In this document: piece after piece, positions 41,141-55,796 of the stretch
Layout: each line of letters begins with the position of its first letter
How positions within the stretch are numbered: position 1 is the first letter of the stretch
Source of the DNA: a virus
Lineage: Duplodnaviria > Caudoviricetes
DNA length: 64,000 nt
Strand: one strand, 5' to 3'
Virus record (IMG/VR): IMGVR_UViG_3300038530_003247
Coordinates: 32,001-96,000 of that record
The notes under the pieces: generated by a model
What the model was told of the DNA's origin: nothing
The model's database searches: none
Seen by the model: only the letters and a program-made list of their open reading frames with translations
Program-made: the position numbers and the translations under genes

Positions 41141-41229
41141 ATTCATAAAGTAATATGGGGAAGTTCGTCTTCCCCTTTCTTTTGCTTCTAAATATTAGAA
41201 AGTATCCATATCATCTAAGGTGTGTCATT

Positions 41230-41400
41230 ATGGACCAACACGATGAATACAGACAACTAGAGTGGGAGATCTACAAAGCAAACCAAGAAGTTCTAACCTC
41301 AGTAGTTGAGAACTTTGGAAAGCTGTCTGTTTCTGGAATAGACATAAATATGGATAGTCTAATTACAGGAATTTCACATGGAAAAGAAAAGGACGACTAG
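41230..41400 (+). CDS. Small hypothetical protein
   Basis: ATG downstream of TAAATA at 41188. Confidence 0.45.
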   Translation: MDQHDEYRQLEWEIYKANQEVLTSVVENFGKLSVSGIDINMDSLITGISHGKEKDD

Positions 41401-41524
41401 ACCCAGATCTGAAAGTGGTGCATCTATGTCGAAGTATGACGTTGAAGTAGAAGCAAGACTCCAAGCTCTTGAGGCAAAACTCGATGACCTCATCAAGAAG
41501 CTTTCCAAAAAGATGTCTTTCTGA
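41378..41524 (+). CDS. Small coiled-coil protein (48 aa)
   Basis: SGASMSKYDVEVEARLQALEAKLD. Confidence 0.6.
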   Translation: MEKKRTTRPRSESGASMSKYDVEVEARLQALEAKLDDLIKKLSKKMSF

Positions 41525-41553
41525 TAAAATACAATTACAGTAAATCTTAAATC

Positions 41554-47711: not shown

Positions 47712-48349
47712 CTTATTCTAAGAGATTCAGTAGCAAATTCTTTTCTAAACTTCTTCAACCAGCAGGAAACAATCCTCAGAGAGACAGAGCATCTTCTTTG
47801 GAAATTGTGTTTGAGGAACTCGATAAGAAGAAGATCAAAGACTTTTTTATCGTCGAGACAGGTTGTATGAGACCTGACCATGGACACCTAACCTTTGGTG
47901 ATGATGGTGCCAGCACTTATATCTGGGACGACTTTGTCAATTATTATGAGGGAGATGTTGCATCTGTTGACATCAATCCGGTCAATGTTGATTATGCCAA
48001 TGCTAACACGTCGGATAAGACACAAGTTTACTGTCAGGACTCTGTTGAGTATCTATGGGATCTATCTGAAAAGAGAAAGATTGATTTCCTTTACCTTGAT
48101 TCCTACGATTTCGTTCCTACTGATCCTATTCCTTCACAGCTTCATCATGTGAAAGAACTCTGTGCGTGTATGAAGAACCTCAAGAAGGGAACCATTATTG
48201 CTGTTGATGATCATCTAAACACCCCTGTGTTTGATCAGTATAGATCAACTCTTGCACAGGGTGGAAAGGCAAGGTTTGTTGAAGACTTCATGAACAACAT
48301 TGGAGCAGAACTTCTTCATGATGGGTATCAGATCGTATGGAGACTTTAA
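47708..48349 (+). CDS. Class I SAM methyltransferase-like protein
   Basis: IVETG, SVDI, DS, IDFLYLDS, IAVDD. Confidence 0.6.
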   Translation: MTYSKRFSSKFFSKLLQPAGNNPQRDRASSLEIVFEELDKKKIKDFFIVETGCMRPDHGHLTFGDDGASTYIWDDFVNYYEGDVASVDINPVNVDYANANTSDKTQVYCQDSVEYLWDLSEKRKIDFLYLDSYDFVPTDPIPSQLHHVKELCACMKNLKKGTIIAVDDHLNTPVFDQYRSTLAQGGKARFVEDFMNNIGAELLHDGYQIVWRL

Positions 48350-48771
48350 CTTTAAGATATGATGGTGACCCTTGTCTAAGGAGAGTGTCCCATAAAGTGA
48401 AGTACTTTGATGAGCCTTTGAATGTCCTTTTGGGTGAGATGAGAAGGATTATCAAAACTGAGAATGGTGTTGGTCTCGCTGCACCTCAGGTTGGTGTCAA
48501 CACAAGAGTTATTCTTGTGATTGATAATGACATTACTGAGATGATTAACCCTGAGATCACTTGGACATCTTCTGAGTTTGTTATGATGGAAGAAGGATGT
48601 CTGAGTGTTCCTGATCACTATATTGACATCGAAAGACCGAGAGAGATCAAGGTCAAGTTTCAAACAAGAGATGGTAAGTATAAGAAGTGGAAATTGAAAG
48701 GACTCCAAGCAAGGATTGTTCTACATGAGGTTGATCATTTAGATGGGAAGTTGATGACGGACTATGAGTGA
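48337..48771 (+). CDS. def: Peptide deformylase
   Basis: GVGLAAPQVG, EGCLS, HEVDH. Confidence 0.93.
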   Translation: METLTLRYDGDPCLRRVSHKVKYFDEPLNVLLGEMRRIIKTENGVGLAAPQVGVNTRVILVIDNDITEMINPEITWTSSEFVMMEEGCLSVPDHYIDIERPREIKVKFQTRDGKYKKWKLKGLQARIVLHEVDHLDGKLMTDYE

Positions 48772-49525
48772 TGTTTTATTGAGACCATGGCATGGAGGCC
48801 TGGGGGATCACCTTCAGTTTTCTACGTTGCCTGAAGAGTTTCACAAACAACAAGGAAGAAAGACTTATCTTCTCGATGGAGCAGAGTTCCGTAATGAGGA
48901 GATTTATAAACTCGTCTGGGAACATAATCCTTATGTCTTGGATGTGAAGGAAGGTGAGTGGAACGCTGGTGACCTCCCTCACTTTGACATGTCAGAGTGT
49001 AAGACCGGGAACTGGATTAGTAACTGGGAGAGGCTTCATGGTCTCGAACCAACAAACACAAGACCAAAGATTTATTATGAACCACAAAAGGTTGATGGTC
49101 TCAGTGATACTATCTTAGTGGATCTTTCAAGTATCTCTATCAGTCATGATGGAAAGGTTCTTGGTTATACCGTGGAGGAAATTGATAAGACATTTAAAAA
49201 GGTACACAAAATTTTTTCTGGCAAGAAATTCGTCTCTATAAGCTTCAAAAACTACATCGCAGATGACATCAACAGGTTCGAACCAGAAGTGGATGGGACT
49301 CTGGAGATCGAGAGTATCTTTCACTACTGTGATGTGATTCGATCTTCGTTTGGTATCTGTTGTCTTTACAGTGGACCAATGGTTCTCTCGACGGCAATTC
49401 AAAGGTTCAACCCAGACTTGAAGATCTTCTGTATTACTTCACCGCTCACATTTAACAGTGACAGAATTCAGAAACAAGGGATGTTTTATTTCCCTGAGTA
49501 TGTTGATTACATGGTAACAGAATGA
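48764..49525 (+). CDS. Hypothetical protein, possibly GT-B/GT9-like
   Basis: N-terminal GGLGD..QFSTLP, SGP near C-terminus. Confidence 0.5.
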   Translation: MSDVLLRPWHGGLGDHLQFSTLPEEFHKQQGRKTYLLDGAEFRNEEIYKLVWEHNPYVLDVKEGEWNAGDLPHFDMSECKTGNWISNWERLHGLEPTNTRPKIYYEPQKVDGLSDTILVDLSSISISHDGKVLGYTVEEIDKTFKKVHKIFSGKKFVSISFKNYIADDINRFEPEVDGTLEIESIFHYCDVIRSSFGICCLYSGPMVLSTAIQRFNPDLKIFCITSPLTFNSDRIQKQGMFYFPEYVDYMVTE

Positions 49526-50181
49526 ACAACAGAGTTTTTATTACAGGGTGTGGGAGTGGACTCGGTAAGTCTCTTTATTTGAAAGCAAGTGGGACTTCCG
49601 CGGTCTTCCCCCATTATCGTAAAGGAGACCCAACAATTGCAAGATTGATTGGAGACCTGAGAGACACTGACTTTCCTGATAAGGTAGATGAGTTTATTCG
49701 TCGGTCTGACATCAATGTGTTTATCAATAACGCTGGTGTGCATCTGAATAAGTCTCCAAGAAAAACAACAGATGAAGAAGTGGATGAGGTGATTGAGAGT
49801 AATCTGACTTCACAAATCAAAGTTATCAACAGAGTTTACAATTACTTTGTTGAGAAGAACAATGGAATGATTATCAACATCAACTCTCTGTGTGTCAGAC
49901 ATCCATCACCGACAGAGAGTGTTTATTGTGCTTCTAAGTTTGGTCTGTTAGGTTTCTCAAAGGCACTTCAGATTGACGCTCTGGGACGAAACGTGGAGAT
50001 TGTTGATATCTTCCCTGGAGCAGTTCAAACAAGAATGACAAGAAACAGAGACAATTATGAAACTCTGATGTCCGCTGATGAGGTGGCAGAGGAGGTTGTT
50101 TCCCTTCTTGATAAAAGAGGGAAAACGTTCTATAATAGTGAAGTGGTACTTAGAAAGAGAAATGAAAGCAGCGGTTCTTGA
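49522..50181 (+). CDS. Short-chain dehydrogenase/reductase
   Basis: TGCGSGLG, INNAG, YCASK, PG.V.T. Confidence 0.9.
   Translation: MNNRVFITGCGSGLGKSLYLKASGTSAVFPHYRKGDPTIARLIGDLRDTDFPDKVDEFIRRSDINVFINNAGVHLNKSPRKTTDEEVDEVIESNLTSQIKVINRVYNYFVEKNNGMIININSLCVRHPSPTESVYCASKFGLLGFSKALQIDALGRNVEIVDIFPGAVQTRMTRNRDNYETLMSADEVAEEVVSLLDKRGKTFYNSEVVLRKRNESSGS
50108..50136 (+). promoter_or_regulatory. Internal sigma70 promoter for the downstream sugar sub-operon
   Basis: TTGATA-N17-TATAAT at the 3' end of the SDR gene. Confidence 0.6.
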
Positions 50182-51175
50182 GAAGCTGAACTCACCACTG
50201 ACAGTCCGGGAGGTTGAACTGACTCCCCTGTCGATCGGTCAAGTTCTTGTACGGGTACTGACAAGTGGAATCTGTGGAGCACAACTCCATGAGATCAAAG
50301 GTTATAAGGGAAACAAGAAGTTTCTTCCACATCTGATGGGTCATGAGGGGTGTGGAATTGTTGAGTCTGTTGGTCTGGGTGTCAATACTGTGGAGGTTGG
50401 TGATAAGGTTGTGATGCATTGGAGACCAGGTGATGGAATTGAATCACCGTTTCCTTCTTACATGCTTGATGGGAAGAGAATCTCAAGTGGAAAGGTGACG
50501 ACACTCAGTGAGTATTCGATTGTCTCTGAGAACCGACTGACCAAGATTGATCCCAAGACACCAACGGTCTTGGCTGCGATGTTGGGTTGTTCGATGACCA
50601 CAGCTCTAGGTCTAATTGATAATGAGATCAACCTGAAGTTTGGTGAAAGTGTTGCTGTCATTGGTTGTGGTGGGGTGGGACTCAATCTCATTCAGGGATT
50701 GAAGATGAAAGGAGCACATGAGATCTTTGGTGTTGATGTCAATGAGTCACTGGGTGACATGGTTCTGGATCTTGGAGCTGATTACTTCCTCTACAATGTT
50801 GAGGCTCTTCGTAATGTGGATGTTGTGATTGACACCACTGGTAACCCATCTGTAATTGGTAAGTCATATGAGAGGCTAAATCCTAGTGGTCGTTTGATTC
50901 TTGTGGGTCAACCAGCACCAAAGATGGCGATTGCAATTCCAAATGCAGTCTCTATGTTCGAGGGGTCTGGAAAAACTATCAAGGCAACACAGGGTGGAAT
51001 GACAAATCCAACTGTGGATATTCCTCGTTACATCAACTTGGCACTTGCTGGAAAACTGGAATACGAGAGTATTCATACTCACACATATACACTGGATGAA
51101 GTGAATGACGCATTTGACCTCCTTCGAAGTGGAAATGCTGGAAGGATTATGATCAAGATTGGAGAAGAACAATGA
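50162..51175 (+). CDS. Zn-binding (MDR) dehydrogenase
   Basis: GIC, GHEG, GCGGVG. Confidence 0.9.
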   Translation: MKAAVLEKLNSPLTVREVELTPLSIGQVLVRVLTSGICGAQLHEIKGYKGNKKFLPHLMGHEGCGIVESVGLGVNTVEVGDKVVMHWRPGDGIESPFPSYMLDGKRISSGKVTTLSEYSIVSENRLTKIDPKTPTVLAAMLGCSMTTALGLIDNEINLKFGESVAVIGCGGVGLNLIQGLKMKGAHEIFGVDVNESLGDMVLDLGADYFLYNVEALRNVDVVIDTTGNPSVIGKSYERLNPSGRLILVGQPAPKMAIAIPNAVSMFEGSGKTIKATQGGMTNPTVDIPRYINLALAGKLEYESIHTHTYTLDEVNDAFDLLRSGNAGRIMIKIGEEQ

Positions 51176-52383
51176 GAAAACAATGGACTAAACAGGAACT
51201 GATTGACTTTGAGAGTGAGATTGGTGTTCTTTATGAGAACAACCAACTCCCCTTCTTGTTTCACCTCTCAGGAGGAAATGAAGATCAACTCATTGATATC
51301 TTCAGTCAAATTAATGAAGGAGACTGGGTGATTTCGAATCACAGAAGTCACTATCATGCACTTCTTCATGGCATTCCTCCTGAGATTGTCAAACAAAGAG
51401 TCATTGATGGACGAAGTATGTTCATCTACGATAAACAACGGAAGTTCTTTGTCTCTGCCATCATTGGTGGAACTCCTGCCATTGCTGCTGGAATTGCCTG
51501 GGCATTGAAGAAGAAAGGAAGTCAGAATAAGGTCTGGTGTTTCATTGGTGATGGAACAGAGGATAATGGACATCTGTTTGAGGCTGCTCGTTATGTTGAT
51601 GGTTGGAATCTTCCTTGTAACTTTGTGATCGAGAGTAACAATCGATCTGTGGAGGCATCCAATGAGGACCGTTGGGGAACTCAATCAAACCTTCAGTGGA
51701 ACTTTGATTGTGTGACCAAGTATGAATATGAATGTTCTTATCCTCACTGTCGTAAGCCTGGAATGATTGACCTGGAGGAGGCTCTGAAGGTCAAGAAGAC
51801 TGATAAAGAGTACTTCCCTCCCCTTCCTGACTTTAAGTATCCTGACCTCTCTTCAAAGGTCCTGGAGGACAAACCCACTTACAAGGAGGGTGTCAAGAGA
51901 TCAATGCAGAAACTGGCTGAGAGAGGTGCCATCTTCATTGGTTACAACGTCAAGTATGGAAAGGCAATGGGAACACTTGAGGGTGTTCCTGATGACCAAC
52001 TGGTGGAGACACCAGTTGCAGAGAACCTGATGTCAGGACTGGCCATCGGAATGAGTTTCGAAGGTTTCCTTCCTGTCATTTACTTTGAACGACATGACTT
52101 TATGTTGGTGGCAGCAGACGCCATTGTGAATCACATTGATAAGATTGAACGCATTTCTCATGGTGAGTTCAAGGTTCCTGTTATAATGAGAGCTGTGACC
52201 GCAGACGCTGGTCCATTCTACTCTGGTCCAACTCACTCACAGAACCTAACAGAAATGTTTAGACGAGCTGTTGACTTCCCTGTCATCTGTCCTCAGGATG
52301 GTCTTGGTGTGATTTGGGCTGTGGATGGAGCACTTGCAAGTGGTCAACCCATGATGTTGATTGAGAAGAAATCACTTTACTGA
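51172..52383 (+). CDS. ThDP-dependent enzyme: E1-alpha-like domain fused to a pyrimidine-binding (E1-beta N-terminal) domain
   Basis: HLSGG.E, HRSHYH, GDG...ESNN, ETPVAEN, GPTHSQ; no beta C-terminal domain. Confidence 0.82.
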   Translation: MRKQWTKQELIDFESEIGVLYENNQLPFLFHLSGGNEDQLIDIFSQINEGDWVISNHRSHYHALLHGIPPEIVKQRVIDGRSMFIYDKQRKFFVSAIIGGTPAIAAGIAWALKKKGSQNKVWCFIGDGTEDNGHLFEAARYVDGWNLPCNFVIESNNRSVEASNEDRWGTQSNLQWNFDCVTKYEYECSYPHCRKPGMIDLEEALKVKKTDKEYFPPLPDFKYPDLSSKVLEDKPTYKEGVKRSMQKLAERGAIFIGYNVKYGKAMGTLEGVPDDQLVETPVAENLMSGLAIGMSFEGFLPVIYFERHDFMLVAADAIVNHIDKIERISHGEFKVPVIMRAVTADAGPFYSGPTHSQNLTEMFRRAVDFPVICPQDGLGVIWAVDGALASGQPMMLIEKKSLY

Positions 52384-52384
52384 T

Positions 52385-53128
52385 ATGACAAAGAAACGTA
52401 TTCTTGTTATTGGTGACAGTTGTAGAGACGTTTACACTTATTGTGAGGCTTCACGTCTGGCTCCGGATCGTCCGGTCCCAGTCTTGGAGCCTGTTCATGT
52501 AGATAAGATGCCTGGGATGGCAATGAATGTCTATGAGAACTTGATTAAGATGACATCAAAGAGTAGTGTGGACATCGTCACAAACTCTAACTGGAAGTCA
52601 ATTCGTAAAGAACGATTTGTTGATTCCAAGAGTAACCACATGTTTATTCGTGTGGACCATGGTGAAGAGGTTGAGAGGTGTGATGTGAGTCAGCTCAACC
52701 TTGATTATGATTGCATTGTTATTTCAGATTACGATAAAGGTTTTCTCACAGAAGCTGACATTGATGAGATCTGTCGGAAACATGACAACGTGATTCTTGA
52801 TACAAAGAAACAACTGGGTGTCTGGGCAACAGATGCAACATGGATTAAGATCAATCAACATGAGTATGAGAGGTCAGAAGTCTTCATAAGGAGATACATG
52901 CCAAACAACATCATCAAGACCCTTGGTGGTGAGGGGTGTGAGTATGGTGGAGAAGTTTATCCTGTACTAAAAAAGAAACAAGTTATTGATGTTTCTGGTG
53001 CTGGTGACACCTTCTTGGCTGCTTTCGTGGTAAGATGGTGTCAAGATAGAGATGTAGTTGGTGCAATCAAAGTTGCCAATCACATGGCATCCAAAGTCGT
53101 ATCTAAAAGAGGAACAAGCACACCATGA
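52385..53128 (+). CDS. PfkB/HldE(RfaE-I)-like sugar kinase
   Basis: IGD..RD, RLAP..PVPV, PG.A.NV, SDYDKG, DVSGAGDTF. Confidence 0.85.
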   Translation: MTKKRILVIGDSCRDVYTYCEASRLAPDRPVPVLEPVHVDKMPGMAMNVYENLIKMTSKSSVDIVTNSNWKSIRKERFVDSKSNHMFIRVDHGEEVERCDVSQLNLDYDCIVISDYDKGFLTEADIDEICRKHDNVILDTKKQLGVWATDATWIKINQHEYERSEVFIRRYMPNNIIKTLGGEGCEYGGEVYPVLKKKQVIDVSGAGDTFLAAFVVRWCQDRDVVGAIKVANHMASKVVSKRGTSTP

Positions 53129-53931
53129 TGTCAATCATAACCGGACATAAAGGTTTCATTGGACAGAACCTCTATAACACTCTGAAGGTCATGGGTCATG
53201 ATCCTATTGGGATTGAGATTAAAAATGCTTGGAATTTCATAGAGAACTTTAATGACTGGAAAAATGTAAGTGCTGTTTATCACCTTGGTGCAATCTCCGA
53301 TACAAGGGAGACTGATCTCGATAAGATTTACAATTACAACATTGACTTCAGTCGAGCTTTATTTGAAGCTTGTGCTATGAATGGAGTTACTGTAAAGACT
53401 GCATCATCGGCAAGTGTGTATGGTAACCTTGTTCATGAGATCAATCCTCTCAATTATTATGCTCTGTCTAAACTGACGATGGATTATTGGATTGAAGATC
53501 ACATTTCACACTTCCCTTTGATCCAATCATTCAGGTTCTTCAATGTTTATGGAGACGGTGAGGAAGATAAGGTCAGGAAAGGAACAGCTTCTCCTGTCTC
53601 GACATTCATTCACCAGGCAAAGACCAAAGGATTTGTCAAAGTCTTTAGGGGGTCAGAGGACTTCATGAGAGACTTTGTTTGTGTGAGAGATGTTGTCTCT
53701 CTGATGATCAAGAACAATGAAAAAAGTGGTGTTTATGATCTTGGAACAAGTAATCCAATCTCATTTCAGATGGTGGCAGAGTTGGTCTGTGCGAAGTATG
53801 GAGCAAAGATAAAGGAAGTCCCTTTTCCTAAAGACTTGGATGGTAAGTATCAGATCTTCACCTCAGCCAAGAGGGATTTCAAACACAACTTTATCACCGT
53901 GAGAGATTACCTGGAGTCAATTCATGAGTAA
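53125..53931 (+). CDS. hldD: ADP-L-glycero-D-manno-heptose 6-epimerase-like
   Basis: TGHKGFIG, HLGAISDT, ASSASVYG, PLNYYALSK, FFNVYG, GKYQ.FT.A. Confidence 0.8.
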   Translation: MMSIITGHKGFIGQNLYNTLKVMGHDPIGIEIKNAWNFIENFNDWKNVSAVYHLGAISDTRETDLDKIYNYNIDFSRALFEACAMNGVTVKTASSASVYGNLVHEINPLNYYALSKLTMDYWIEDHISHFPLIQSFRFFNVYGDGEEDKVRKGTASPVSTFIHQAKTKGFVKVFRGSEDFMRDFVCVRDVVSLMIKNNEKSGVYDLGTSNPISFQMVAELVCAKYGAKIKEVPFPKDLDGKYQIFTSAKRDFKHNFITVRDYLESIHE

Positions 53932-54334
53932 AATCGTATGGACAAATGGATGTTTTGACATCCTCCACCCTGGTCATATCGAACTCTTTAAGATTGGAAA
54001 GACACTTTCCAATGGAGGTAAGTTGATCGTTGGTCTTGATTATGACGAGAAGGTGAAGGTGGATAAGGGTGCCGAGAGACCCATCAACACTTTTCAAGAC
54101 AGAAAGATCATGCTAGAATGCATTAAATATATTGATGTGGTTCTTGGATTTGGATCAAGAAAAGAACTTGAAGACCTTATTGAGTTACACAGACCTGACA
54201 TTCTAATTGACGGAGGAGAATGGCGCCATGATGGAGTGGGACGAGAATTTGCGAAGGAAACTCGGTTTTTCAATCGGATCGGAGGATATTCCTCCAGTGA
54301 AATCATCGAAAGAATCCGCAGCGGATCCAATTAA
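53924..54334 (+). CDS. HldE(RfaE-II)-like nucleotidylyltransferase
   Basis: TNGCFDILHPGH, KG..RPIN, GYSSSEII. Confidence 0.85.
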   Translation: MSKIVWTNGCFDILHPGHIELFKIGKTLSNGGKLIVGLDYDEKVKVDKGAERPINTFQDRKIMLECIKYIDVVLGFGSRKELEDLIELHRPDILIDGGEWRHDGVGREFAKETRFFNRIGGYSSSEIIERIRSGSN

Positions 54335-54671
54335 GTTTGTTCCCAAAGGTTGGGGATACGAAAAGTGGATCGCCAACGGGCCTGAATACTGTGGTAAGCT
54401 TTTGTTTATTGCAAAGGACAGGAAATGTTCATGGCACTATCATGAACTGAAAGATGAGGTCTTCTTCATTTACAAAGGTGCCATTGAGGTTTATCATTCT
54501 ACTGGGGACAGTCTTGAGAGTGCAGATATGACTCTCCTGGGTCCCGGTGAGAAGTTTCATGTTCCTCGTGGGATGAGACACCAGATGGTTGCTCTTGCTG
54601 ATACAGAGTTGTTTGAGTTTAGTACTCAACACTTTGATTCAGATTCTCACAGAATTATCAAAGGAGATTGA
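54228..54671 (+). CDS. Cupin sugar-isomerase-like protein (start uncertain)
   Basis: KGWGYE.W, YCGKLL, SWHYH..KDE.F, H.M, EFST. Confidence 0.75.
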   Translation: MMEWDENLRRKLGFSIGSEDIPPVKSSKESAADPIKFVPKGWGYEKWIANGPEYCGKLLFIAKDRKCSWHYHELKDEVFFIYKGAIEVYHSTGDSLESADMTLLGPGEKFHVPRGMRHQMVALADTELFEFSTQHFDSDSHRIIKGD

Positions 54672-55009
54672 TGAAAAGGTATTGTATTGACATTGACGGT
54701 ACAATCTGTACCCCCACAGTTGGTAGAGATTATGAATCCGCTAAACCTTTTCCTGAAAGGATTGCAAGTATCAATGAGATGTATGATCAAGGACATTACA
54801 TCATCTTCTTTACTGCAAGGGCGATGGGTCGATTCTGTGGTGACCCTGACGACAGACAGAAAGCTGAGGATCTTATGAGAGATCTCACAGAGAAACAACT
54901 TGAGAAGTGGGGAGTGAAGTATCACGAACTTCTTTTCGGTAAACCACACGCCGATGTTTTCATCGACGACAAAGCTGTAAGTGACAAGGATTGGTTCTGT
55001 TATGGTTAG
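54671..55009 (+). CDS. HAD-family (capsule biosynthesis-type) phosphatase
   Basis: DIDGTI, FTAR, GKP, FIDDKA. Confidence 0.82.
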   Translation: MKRYCIDIDGTICTPTVGRDYESAKPFPERIASINEMYDQGHYIIFFTARAMGRFCGDPDDRQKAEDLMRDLTEKQLEKWGVKYHELLFGKPHADVFIDDKAVSDKDWFCYG

Positions 55010-55796
55010 AGACAAGAATAAATCACTCTCCAAAGTAAAAGGGATTGGTCCAATTTATTATCTCAATCTTGATGGGCAACCTGAGAGACGTGAGTTTATG
55101 GAGGAGCAGTTCAAGTACTGGGAGATTGATAATTACAAAAGAATCTCTGCTTATGATGGTCGAGACGATGACCTGAGTGACATCATCAAGGGACGTTATC
55201 CTGACATGATGACCTCTGGTGAGATTGGTTGCACAACATCACACCTCAAGGCTATCAAGGAGTTCTATGAGACTGGAGAACCTTATGCAATCATCATGGA
55301 AGATGATTGTAGTCTTGACTTGATTCGGTTCTGGAACTTTACATGGAAGGACTTTTACTCTAGGATCCCTTATGATTGGGATGTCGTACAGATTGCAATC
55401 ATCTGTACAGGAGATATTCACATCAAAATCCATAAGAGATTTGTGAATGAGTTCTCAACCGCTTGTTATCTTATCACTCGTCATCATGCCGAGAAGATGA
55501 TCAAGCTTCACTGTAGAGGTGACAAGTATAAGTTGGACAATGGAGTGAGACCTCGTCCCGTTGCGGATGACCTTCTCTATAACTCTGGAAACACTTATTC
55601 AATCCCTCTTCTTCTTTATCATATTCCCTTGGGATCATCGATTCATCCTGATCATGTTGACGCATTTCATAAAGGAAACTTCGATGCACAAATGAACTTC
55701 TGGCAAAACATGGGAGCTCAGAAGACAGTTGATGAGTTGATGGATTATGATCCCTATCTGGGTCGTGTCAGTGAGTCATCAGCAAACGGGGGATAA
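55002..55796 (+). CDS. GT25 glycosyltransferase
   Basis: YLNLD..PERR, GEIGC..SH, IMEDD. Confidence 0.82.
   Translation: MVRDKNKSLSKVKGIGPIYYLNLDGQPERREFMEEQFKYWEIDNYKRISAYDGRDDDLSDIIKGRYPDMMTSGEIGCTTSHLKAIKEFYETGEPYAIIMEDDCSLDLIRFWNFTWKDFYSRIPYDWDVVQIAIICTGDIHIKIHKRFVNEFSTACYLITRHHAEKMIKLHCRGDKYKLDNGVRPRPVADDLLYNSGNTYSIPLLLYHIPLGSSIHPDHVDAFHKGNFDAQMNFWQNMGAQKTVDELMDYDPYLGRVSESSANGG

Follow-up and report, generated by a model that had tools for sequence, protein, structure and literature searches.

The co-occurrence of a set of "LPS" (lipopolysaccharide) genes in cyanophages has already been noted, with their function left open (Sullivan et al., 2010; PMC3037559). These genes were placed in clusters T4-GC 304 (a nucleotidyltransferase), 305 (a kinase), 307 (a cupin, named cysteine dioxygenase), and 308 (an epimerase), and a "phosphoheptose isomerase" of cyanophages is mentioned in later genome notes (PMC7378029). 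Here, we describe seven adjacent genes of this kind in a 64,000-nucleotide stretch of viral DNA (the window), which comprises bases 32001-96000 of a 129-kb IMG/VR record (IMGVR_UViG_3300038530_003247, 67% complete). The virus is a T4-like cyanomyovirus. The seven genes encode a medium-chain dehydrogenase/reductase (MDR), a fused thiamine diphosphate (ThDP) enzyme, a PfkB sugar kinase, an HldD-like epimerase, an HldE-like nucleotidyltransferase, a cupin, and a HAD phosphatase. We propose, with a probability of roughly 55%, that they encode a stripped-down route of the ADP-heptose type, in which the MDR and the ThDP enzyme, which form a trio with the kinase, would alter an intermediate or supply the precursor. 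These genes are genuine and conserved, and they are linked to heptose biosynthesis.

The nearest isolates for the sugar region are Prochlorococcus phage P-TIM68 and Synechococcus phage S-SM2, both of which are T4-like cyanomyoviruses. P-TIM68 (gp188-197) has the identical gene set and order as the window's block, and S-SM2 (SSM2_196-216) has the genes of the block with insertions. The "LPS gene" clusters of these phages and the cassette of P-SSM2 and S-SSM7 (T4-GCs 304-308) are direct homologues of the genes in the window, in the same order and with 46-72% amino-acid identity, but P-SSM2 and S-SSM7 have neither an MDR nor a ThDP gene. (In the S-SM2 cluster, our locus L002, record positions 154113-158172, the gap between the nucleotidyltransferase and the cupin holds a sugar pyrophosphorylase, a class II aldolase, a second mini-HAD, and other genes.) Thus, the cluster is already present in public phage genomes; what is new is the pathway variant and the correction of the annotations. 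The seven genes are:

50162..51175, + strand: MDR Zn-dependent dehydrogenase, similar to class I/III alcohol dehydrogenases but without the structural-zinc loop (ADH_N, ADH_zinc_N)
51172..52383, + strand: fused ThDP enzyme of 403 amino acids, with an E1alpha-type pyrophosphate-binding (PP) domain and an E1beta-type pyrimidine-binding (Pyr) domain (E1_dh at 10-157, Transket_pyr at 235-403)
52385..53128, + strand: PfkB sugar kinase, similar to HldE domain I (TIGR02198, rfaE_dom_I, E 8e-34); the open reading frame begins with TTG at 52361, and ATG at 52385 is the likely start
53125..53931, + strand: HldD-like epimerase of the short-chain dehydrogenase/reductase (SDR) family (TIGR02197, heptose_epim, E 2e-51)
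53924..54334, + strand: nucleotidyltransferase, similar to HldE domain II (TIGR02199, rfaE_dom_II) and to cytidylyltransferases
54297..54671, + strand: metal cupin, candidate ketose/aldose isomerase (Cupin_2); the start is GTG at 54297 or ATG at 54228
54671..55009, + strand: cap-less mini-HAD phosphatase of 112 amino acids, candidate stand-in for GmhB (DxDGT motif; TIGR01689 capsule phosphatase, E 4e-9)

Families were assigned by searches with Pfam and NCBIfam profiles, and scores were compared with the curated NCBIfam cut-offs. All seven family assignments of the original prediction, which had been made from the sequence without database searches, hold, and the catalytic motifs are intact in all seven proteins. 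The top family for the kinase is TIGR02198 (117 bits, relative to a cut-off of 345), and the GAGD motif of PfkB is present. For the epimerase, it is TIGR02197 (174.8 bits, cut-off 274.6; GxxGxxG and YxxxK motifs present), and for the nucleotidyltransferase, it is TIGR02199 (98.3 bits, cut-off 181.5; HxGH and ISST-like motifs present), followed by the glycerol-3-phosphate cytidylyltransferases as the second-ranking family. As judged by these scores, the kinase, nucleotidyltransferase, and epimerase are relatives of the heptose enzymes rather than certified equivalogs.

The true start of the MDR gene is the ATG at 50162, not 50078, which leaves a 20-nt overlap with the upstream SDR gene. The nearest PDB matches of the MDR protein are class III alcohol dehydrogenases (E 4e-38), and its sequence contains candidate zinc ligands (C38, H61, and C143) and a GCGGVG motif. 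The chain of the ThDP enzyme stops at the Pyr domain, and Transketolase_C is absent. Its GDG...NN motif, Glu284 of the Pyr domain, and THSQ are conserved, that is, both the ThDP motif of the E1 type and the catalytic glutamate are present. It has over 1200 homologues, which are mostly from marine viruses; the cellular relatives are mostly split into a PP protein of ~200 amino acids and a Pyr protein of ~170 amino acids. The enzyme gives weak matches to DXS, and the ESM Atlas returned only viral clusters named "transketolase central region", but its sequence is of the E1 type and not of the transketolase type. We found no lipoyl or E2 gene among the open reading frames of the cluster that were scanned. 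Because the ThDP enzyme is E1-like in sequence, we suggest that it uses a 2-oxo acid or a ketol as the donor and transfers a C2 unit. We also considered a phosphonate route (PepM/Ppd) and rejected it: there was no PEP-mutase match among the scanned open reading frames of the cluster, and the ThDP enzyme is E1-like rather than Ppd-like. Our literature searches for a link between ThDP enzymes and heptose, and for heptose in cyanophages, found mentions at the level of annotation only.

The original prediction had noted that no SIS-fold GmhA is encoded in the window and had suggested that the cupin could replace it. Searches with TIGR00441 and PF13580, whose positive controls matched, found no SIS or GmhA protein in the window or in the rest of the 129-kb record, nor did these profiles match anything in two IMG/VR genomes or in five complete phage genomes (P-TIM68, S-SM2, P-SSM2, S-SSM7, and Bellamy). 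The AlphaFold2 model of the cupin has a predicted local distance difference test score (pLDDT) of 96, and its top matches in a Foldseek search are KdgF, D-lyxose isomerases, the cupin domain of CapF, and an archaeal phosphomannose isomerase. A profile built from 16 cupin homologues can be aligned along its entire length with D-lyxose/D-mannose isomerase, with agreement at the HxH, K-x-E, H, and E-F-S positions. The metal-motif residues H35, H37, E42, and H83 are invariant, as are the matched isomerase positions within the phage family. Compared with the D-lyxose/D-mannose isomerases and archaeal phosphomannose isomerases (PDB 7nzo, 2y0o, 3kmh, and 7zvm), the phage cupin has the same fold, the HxH...E...H metal motif, K-x-E, and E-F-S, although the identity is only ~20% and the phage protein is shorter (~112-124 amino acids). 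These enzymes make manno-configured aldoses from ketoses, which is the chemistry of GmhA on sedoheptulose-7-phosphate. The fold, the motifs, the constant co-occurrence, and the complementarity with GmhA (discussed below) all support the cupin as a candidate replacement, and we consider this predicted activity to be well motivated by the sequence and the structural model. The public annotation of the cupin as "cysteine dioxygenase" does not fit: one structure of a putative cysteine dioxygenase (4qm9) ranks 25th in the fold search, cupins that act on sugars rank higher, and the annotation has no support from sequence families.

A similar substitution had been suggested for the HAD phosphatase. 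It has no match to the GmhB model (TIGR00213, the HAD-IIIA 7-phosphatase), and its nearest relative of known structure is a protein of capsule biosynthesis (PDB 9iqw, E 3e-14). However, a picocyanobacterial genome (G135, L135:15228-16154) encodes a 309-amino-acid fusion of an N-terminal mini-HAD and a SIS GmhA domain, and the HAD from the window is 49% identical to the N-terminal part of this fusion (E 3e-31). This fusion is Rosetta-stone evidence that the HAD takes the place of GmhB in the heptose pathway, so the substitution seems well motivated from sequence comparison. (In genomes G010 and G027, too, the GmhA matches fall within open frames of ~300 amino acids.) In GenBank, the HAD (T4-GC 306) is named "phosphoheptose isomerase", probably because HAD-GmhA fusions exist. 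We reject this name, as the protein has HAD motifs and matches to HAD families and no SIS domain. At another site in L135 (7279-9898), a 525-amino-acid protein has a NeuB domain and a C-terminal cupin of the phage cupin family, and it adjoins a 358-amino-acid fusion of a CMP-sugar synthetase-like protein and a mini-HAD. These two fusions suggest that the cupin and mini-HAD domains also serve a route to nonulosonic acids.

The original prediction was to fail if the ThDP gene did not accompany hld-like genes in other genomes. We checked this, and the association recurs, both in viruses and in cells. Among 61 viral ThDP loci from IMG/VR, the MDR gene adjoins the ThDP gene in 60 and the PfkB kinase gene does so in 60. 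The epimerase is present in 47 of these loci, the nucleotidyltransferase in 46, the HAD in 37, and the cupin in 36. The complete set of five hld-like genes occurs in 36 of the 61 loci (26 of the 40 that are well flanked). Furthermore, a genuine segment of a Prochlorococcus chromosome (flanked by mutY, ahcY, tsaE, and mreB) encodes an MDR (60% identity) and a ThDP enzyme (71% identity) that directly adjoin canonical gmhB, hldE, hldD, and gmhA, and just upstream in a sister contig is a TPR protein that weakly matches GT9. More distant ThDP homologues, fused or split, lie near SIS and/or HldE-like genes in bacteria and archaea. Contig L080 has the phage-type order MDR-ThDP-kinase-SIS. An operon from Burkholderiales encodes an SDR, a methyltransferase, an ALS-type ThDP enzyme, a SIS protein, E1-PP, E1-Pyr, a nucleotidyltransferase, two epimerases, another methyltransferase, and a radical SAM protein; this operon, from a metagenome-assembled genome (L120:6217-15906), probably leads to a heavily modified sugar. 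At L068:4721-6943, split Pyr and PP subunits of the ThDP family have a radical-SAM/SPASM gene between them, and they sit in a phage-like glycan cluster with an Acb1-like gene.

The suggestion that the set is self-contained is not supported as a general property: two large phage genomes have MDR-ThDP-kinase but no cupin, mini-HAD, or GmhA, and about a dozen isolates have the hld-like module without the ThDP gene. The cassette nucleotidyltransferase-kinase-HAD-cupin-epimerase occurs in about 14 named cyanophage isolates, including P-SSM2 and S-SSM7, and only P-TIM68 and S-SM2 among the isolates have the ThDP gene.

The following features surround or overlap the seven genes:

48764..49525, + strand: protein of 253 amino acids without annotation, with a GT9 (heptosyltransferase) fold (AlphaFold2 and Foldseek)
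49522..50181, + strand: FabG-like SDR (PF00106, E 5.5e-30)
50108..50136, + strand: sigma-70-like motif TTGATA-N17-TATAAT inside the SDR gene (hexamers 11/12), probably a chance match
54981..55796, + strand: GT25 glycosyltransferase (PF01755, E 3e-15), probable user of the product

The protein at 48764-49525, which is outside the coordinates of the original prediction, has no match in Pfam or NCBIfam, and PF01075 does not match it even at E 0.1. The AlphaFold2 model (pLDDT 82) has GT9 enzymes as most of its top PDB matches in Foldseek (TibC, a Veillonella GT9, WaaF, and WaaC; E down to 1e-7, TMq ~0.6), and the ESM Atlas also gives GT9 as the lead. As modelled, a GT9 fold next door would fit a heptose-type donor. 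The GT25 gene is syntenic in P-TIM68 and many other loci. The FabG-like SDR accompanies MDR-ThDP in only 8 of the 61 viral loci. We considered whether the sugar might modify DNA, which is unlikely: several transferases (GT2, GT9, GT11, and GT25) point to an oligosaccharide. In the middle of the glycosyltransferase array lies a peptide deformylase gene (48337-48771 in the window; PF01327, E 2e-41), which overlaps both of its neighbours.

The original prediction treated the genes from 50108 onward as a separately promoted sub-operon, and this part of it does not stand. The motif at 50108-50136 is the top-scoring promoter match across 16 kb, but it lies within the coding sequence of the SDR. It is kept only in a strain that is 97% identical (L003) and is absent from the corresponding SDR/MDR junction in P-TIM68 and in three other loci that have the SDR gene (L005, L007, and L010). 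Also, the region has 37 promoter-like sites, which is at the level of shuffled sequences (31.7 +/- 5.2). Because the motif is in coding sequence and is not conserved, and because the number of sites is what shuffling gives, we reject a separate promoter. Furthermore, the co-directional open reading frames between 43581 and 55796 form a single unbroken array of overlapping or abutting frames. The array is not bounded at 50108, which also argues against a separately promoted sub-operon. On balance, we favor the view that the genes are the nucleotide-sugar part of a 14-kb glycan island of a cyanomyovirus, within a single long array of translationally coupled genes. A more plausible start of the whole glycan array is the region 41157-41530, where a hairpin that resembles a bidirectional terminator (41157-41175) precedes a promoter-like site with a TG extension (41502-41530), immediately before the first epimerase gene.

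From the observed gene families, motifs, folds, synteny, co-occurrence, and fusion, we infer every substrate and every reaction of the following scheme. The cupin, in place of a SIS GmhA, would convert a ketose phosphate (in the simplest case, sedoheptulose-7-phosphate) to a manno-aldose phosphate. The PfkB kinase would then form the 1,7-bisphosphate, and the mini-HAD, in place of the HAD-IIIA GmhB, would remove the distal phosphate. The small nucleotidyltransferase would yield a nucleoside diphosphate (NDP) sugar, which the HldD-like SDR would epimerize. The MDR and the fused ThDP enzyme, which form a fixed trio with the kinase, would most likely carry out a C2 transfer and then a redox step on the carbon skeleton of an intermediate; alternatively, they might provide a non-standard ketose as the precursor. 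The GT9-fold protein next to the block, among other glycosyltransferases, would use the product.

Several observations weigh against this scheme. All four of the hld-like proteins score under the curated NCBIfam cut-offs, so the substrate need not be a heptose. The similarities of the cupin in sequence are weak (E 1e-5 to 1e-2), cupins are functionally diverse, and in the fold search, the isomerases do not outrank KdgF or the epimerase domain of CapF. Among 124 fetched loci, 43 have only the cupin, 12 have only GmhA, and none has both, but this exclusivity is largely a split between phages and cells, so the loci are not independent observations. Also, the cyanobacterial island L135 has a distant NeuB-fused cupin domain together with GmhA genes. 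The ThDP gene is missing from most of the cyanophage isolates that have the hld-like cassette, so the ThDP enzyme and the MDR may be a separate module, and the two large phage genomes with MDR-ThDP-kinase lack the cupin and the mini-HAD as well as GmhA.

Alternatively, the phage might make ordinary ADP-L-glycero-D-manno-heptose with the help of the host's GmhA. The cupin would then have another role, such as the 3,5- or C3-epimerization of an NDP-sugar, as with RmlC or CapF, or a step resembling that of KdgF; the CapF cupin domain and KdgF are among its top structural matches. In this case, the MDR and the ThDP enzyme would act in an unrelated step of the glycan island, which fits the isolates that have the hld-like cassette alone. 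Some Prochlorococcus do have the canonical gmhA-hldE-hldD-gmhB set. However, a gmhA-like gene is present in only 35 of 151 sampled picocyanobacterial genomes (relatives of a Prochlorococcus host genome) and was not found in the other 116, so the phage cannot rely on supply from the host. Also, the cupin accompanies the kinase, the nucleotidyltransferase, and the HAD in every isolate cassette that we examined; it has no match to PF00908, so it is not of the RmlC family; and the adjacency of MDR, ThDP enzyme, and kinase is nearly invariant. We consider this explanation unlikely.

The phage genomes that have the trio without the cupin, HAD, or GmhA are complete or nearly so, and they raise the question of whether the MDR, the ThDP enzyme, and the PfkB kinase are an independent module. 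Such a module might make a small keto-sugar or deoxy-ketose, as DXS does, from pyruvate or hydroxypyruvate and an aldehyde. This would be phosphorylated for decoration with a phospho-sugar or an alditol phosphate, and the nucleotidyltransferase would be TagD-like and give a CDP-linked donor rather than ADP-heptose. The weak DXS matches of the ThDP enzyme, the second family of the nucleotidyltransferase, and the capsule phosphatases that are the nearest named relatives of the HAD would all fit. This seems quite improbable, given that heptose-pathway families are the top matches for the kinase, nucleotidyltransferase, and epimerase, that the cellular ThDP loci contain true GmhA and HldE, that the mini-HAD is found fused to GmhA, and that a GT9 heptosyltransferase fold is adjacent. 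It is very unlikely that the ThDP enzyme is an auxiliary metabolic gene of central carbon metabolism, that is, a mini-transketolase that raises the supply of sedoheptulose-7-phosphate or pentose phosphates during infection, like the cyanophage talC, rather than an enzyme of sugar tailoring. Cyanophages do carry pentose-phosphate genes (PMC3037559; PMC9602691), and the PP-Pyr domain order is that of transketolase and DXS as well as E1. However, the ThDP gene always lies within glycan clusters beside glycosyltransferases, and its sequence is not of the transketolase type. Also, sedoheptulose-7-phosphate is already abundant in a host with a Calvin cycle.

The stripped-down ADP-heptose-type route has a more ambitious form, which we put forward only tentatively. 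The cupin might represent a new class of non-SIS isomerases for sedoheptulose-7-phosphate (or a higher ketose phosphate), and the MDR and the ThDP enzyme might add a two-carbon unit to an intermediate of the heptose pathway. The NDP-sugar made by marine cyanophages and a few Prochlorococcus would then be an undescribed one, branched or with more carbons, and GT9-type enzymes would transfer it to a target on the host or the virion.

These genes are abundant in ocean viromes, where they are counted as "LPS" or "gmhA" auxiliary metabolic genes by way of wrong annotation. If the cupin does replace GmhA, then this would be a clean non-orthologous displacement in a pathway that is a target of antibiotics and of innate immunity, and it would correct the catalogues of viral auxiliary metabolic genes. 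If the ThDP enzyme and the MDR remodel a heptose, then this would be a new sugar-tailoring chemistry that is common to phages, Prochlorococcus, and diverse bacteria and archaea, and it would offer a way to learn what cyanophages glycosylate as they infect. If plain ADP-heptose is all that is made, then we are left with a tidy re-annotation.

The scheme can also be compared to other known systems. It shares with the ADP-L-glycero-beta-D-manno-heptose pathway of Gram-negative bacteria (GmhA, HldE, GmhB, and HldD) the "bisphosphate" logic of a kinase followed by a phosphatase; the top families are HldE domain I, HldE domain II, and HldD, and a GT9-fold transferase is adjacent. The phage set differs in that it has a cupin and no SIS GmhA, its phosphatase is a cap-less HAD of 112 amino acids instead of the HAD-IIIA GmhB, its kinase and nucleotidyltransferase are separate and shortened, and the MDR and ThDP enzymes are added. 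In the route to the octose of lincomycin (LmbR-LmbN-LmbP-LmbK-LmbO), an enzyme that forms a C-C bond supplies a higher ketose phosphate, and an isomerase, a kinase, a phosphatase, and a nucleotidyltransferase then lead to an NDP-higher-sugar, as we propose here. However, LmbR is a transaldolase and not a ThDP enzyme, and LmbN is a SIS/GmhA homologue. Finally, the ThDP enzyme has in common with the E1 components of 2-oxo-acid and acetoin dehydrogenases the E1-type PP and Pyr domains, the ThDP motif, the catalytic glutamate, and HSQ. In the phage enzyme, though, the alpha and beta parts are fused (403 amino acids), the alpha part is truncated, and the C-terminal domain of beta is missing; it also has no E2 or E3 partner and lies in a glycan cluster. 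E1-like pairs with the same E1-type domain features take part in the C2-branching of deoxysugars.

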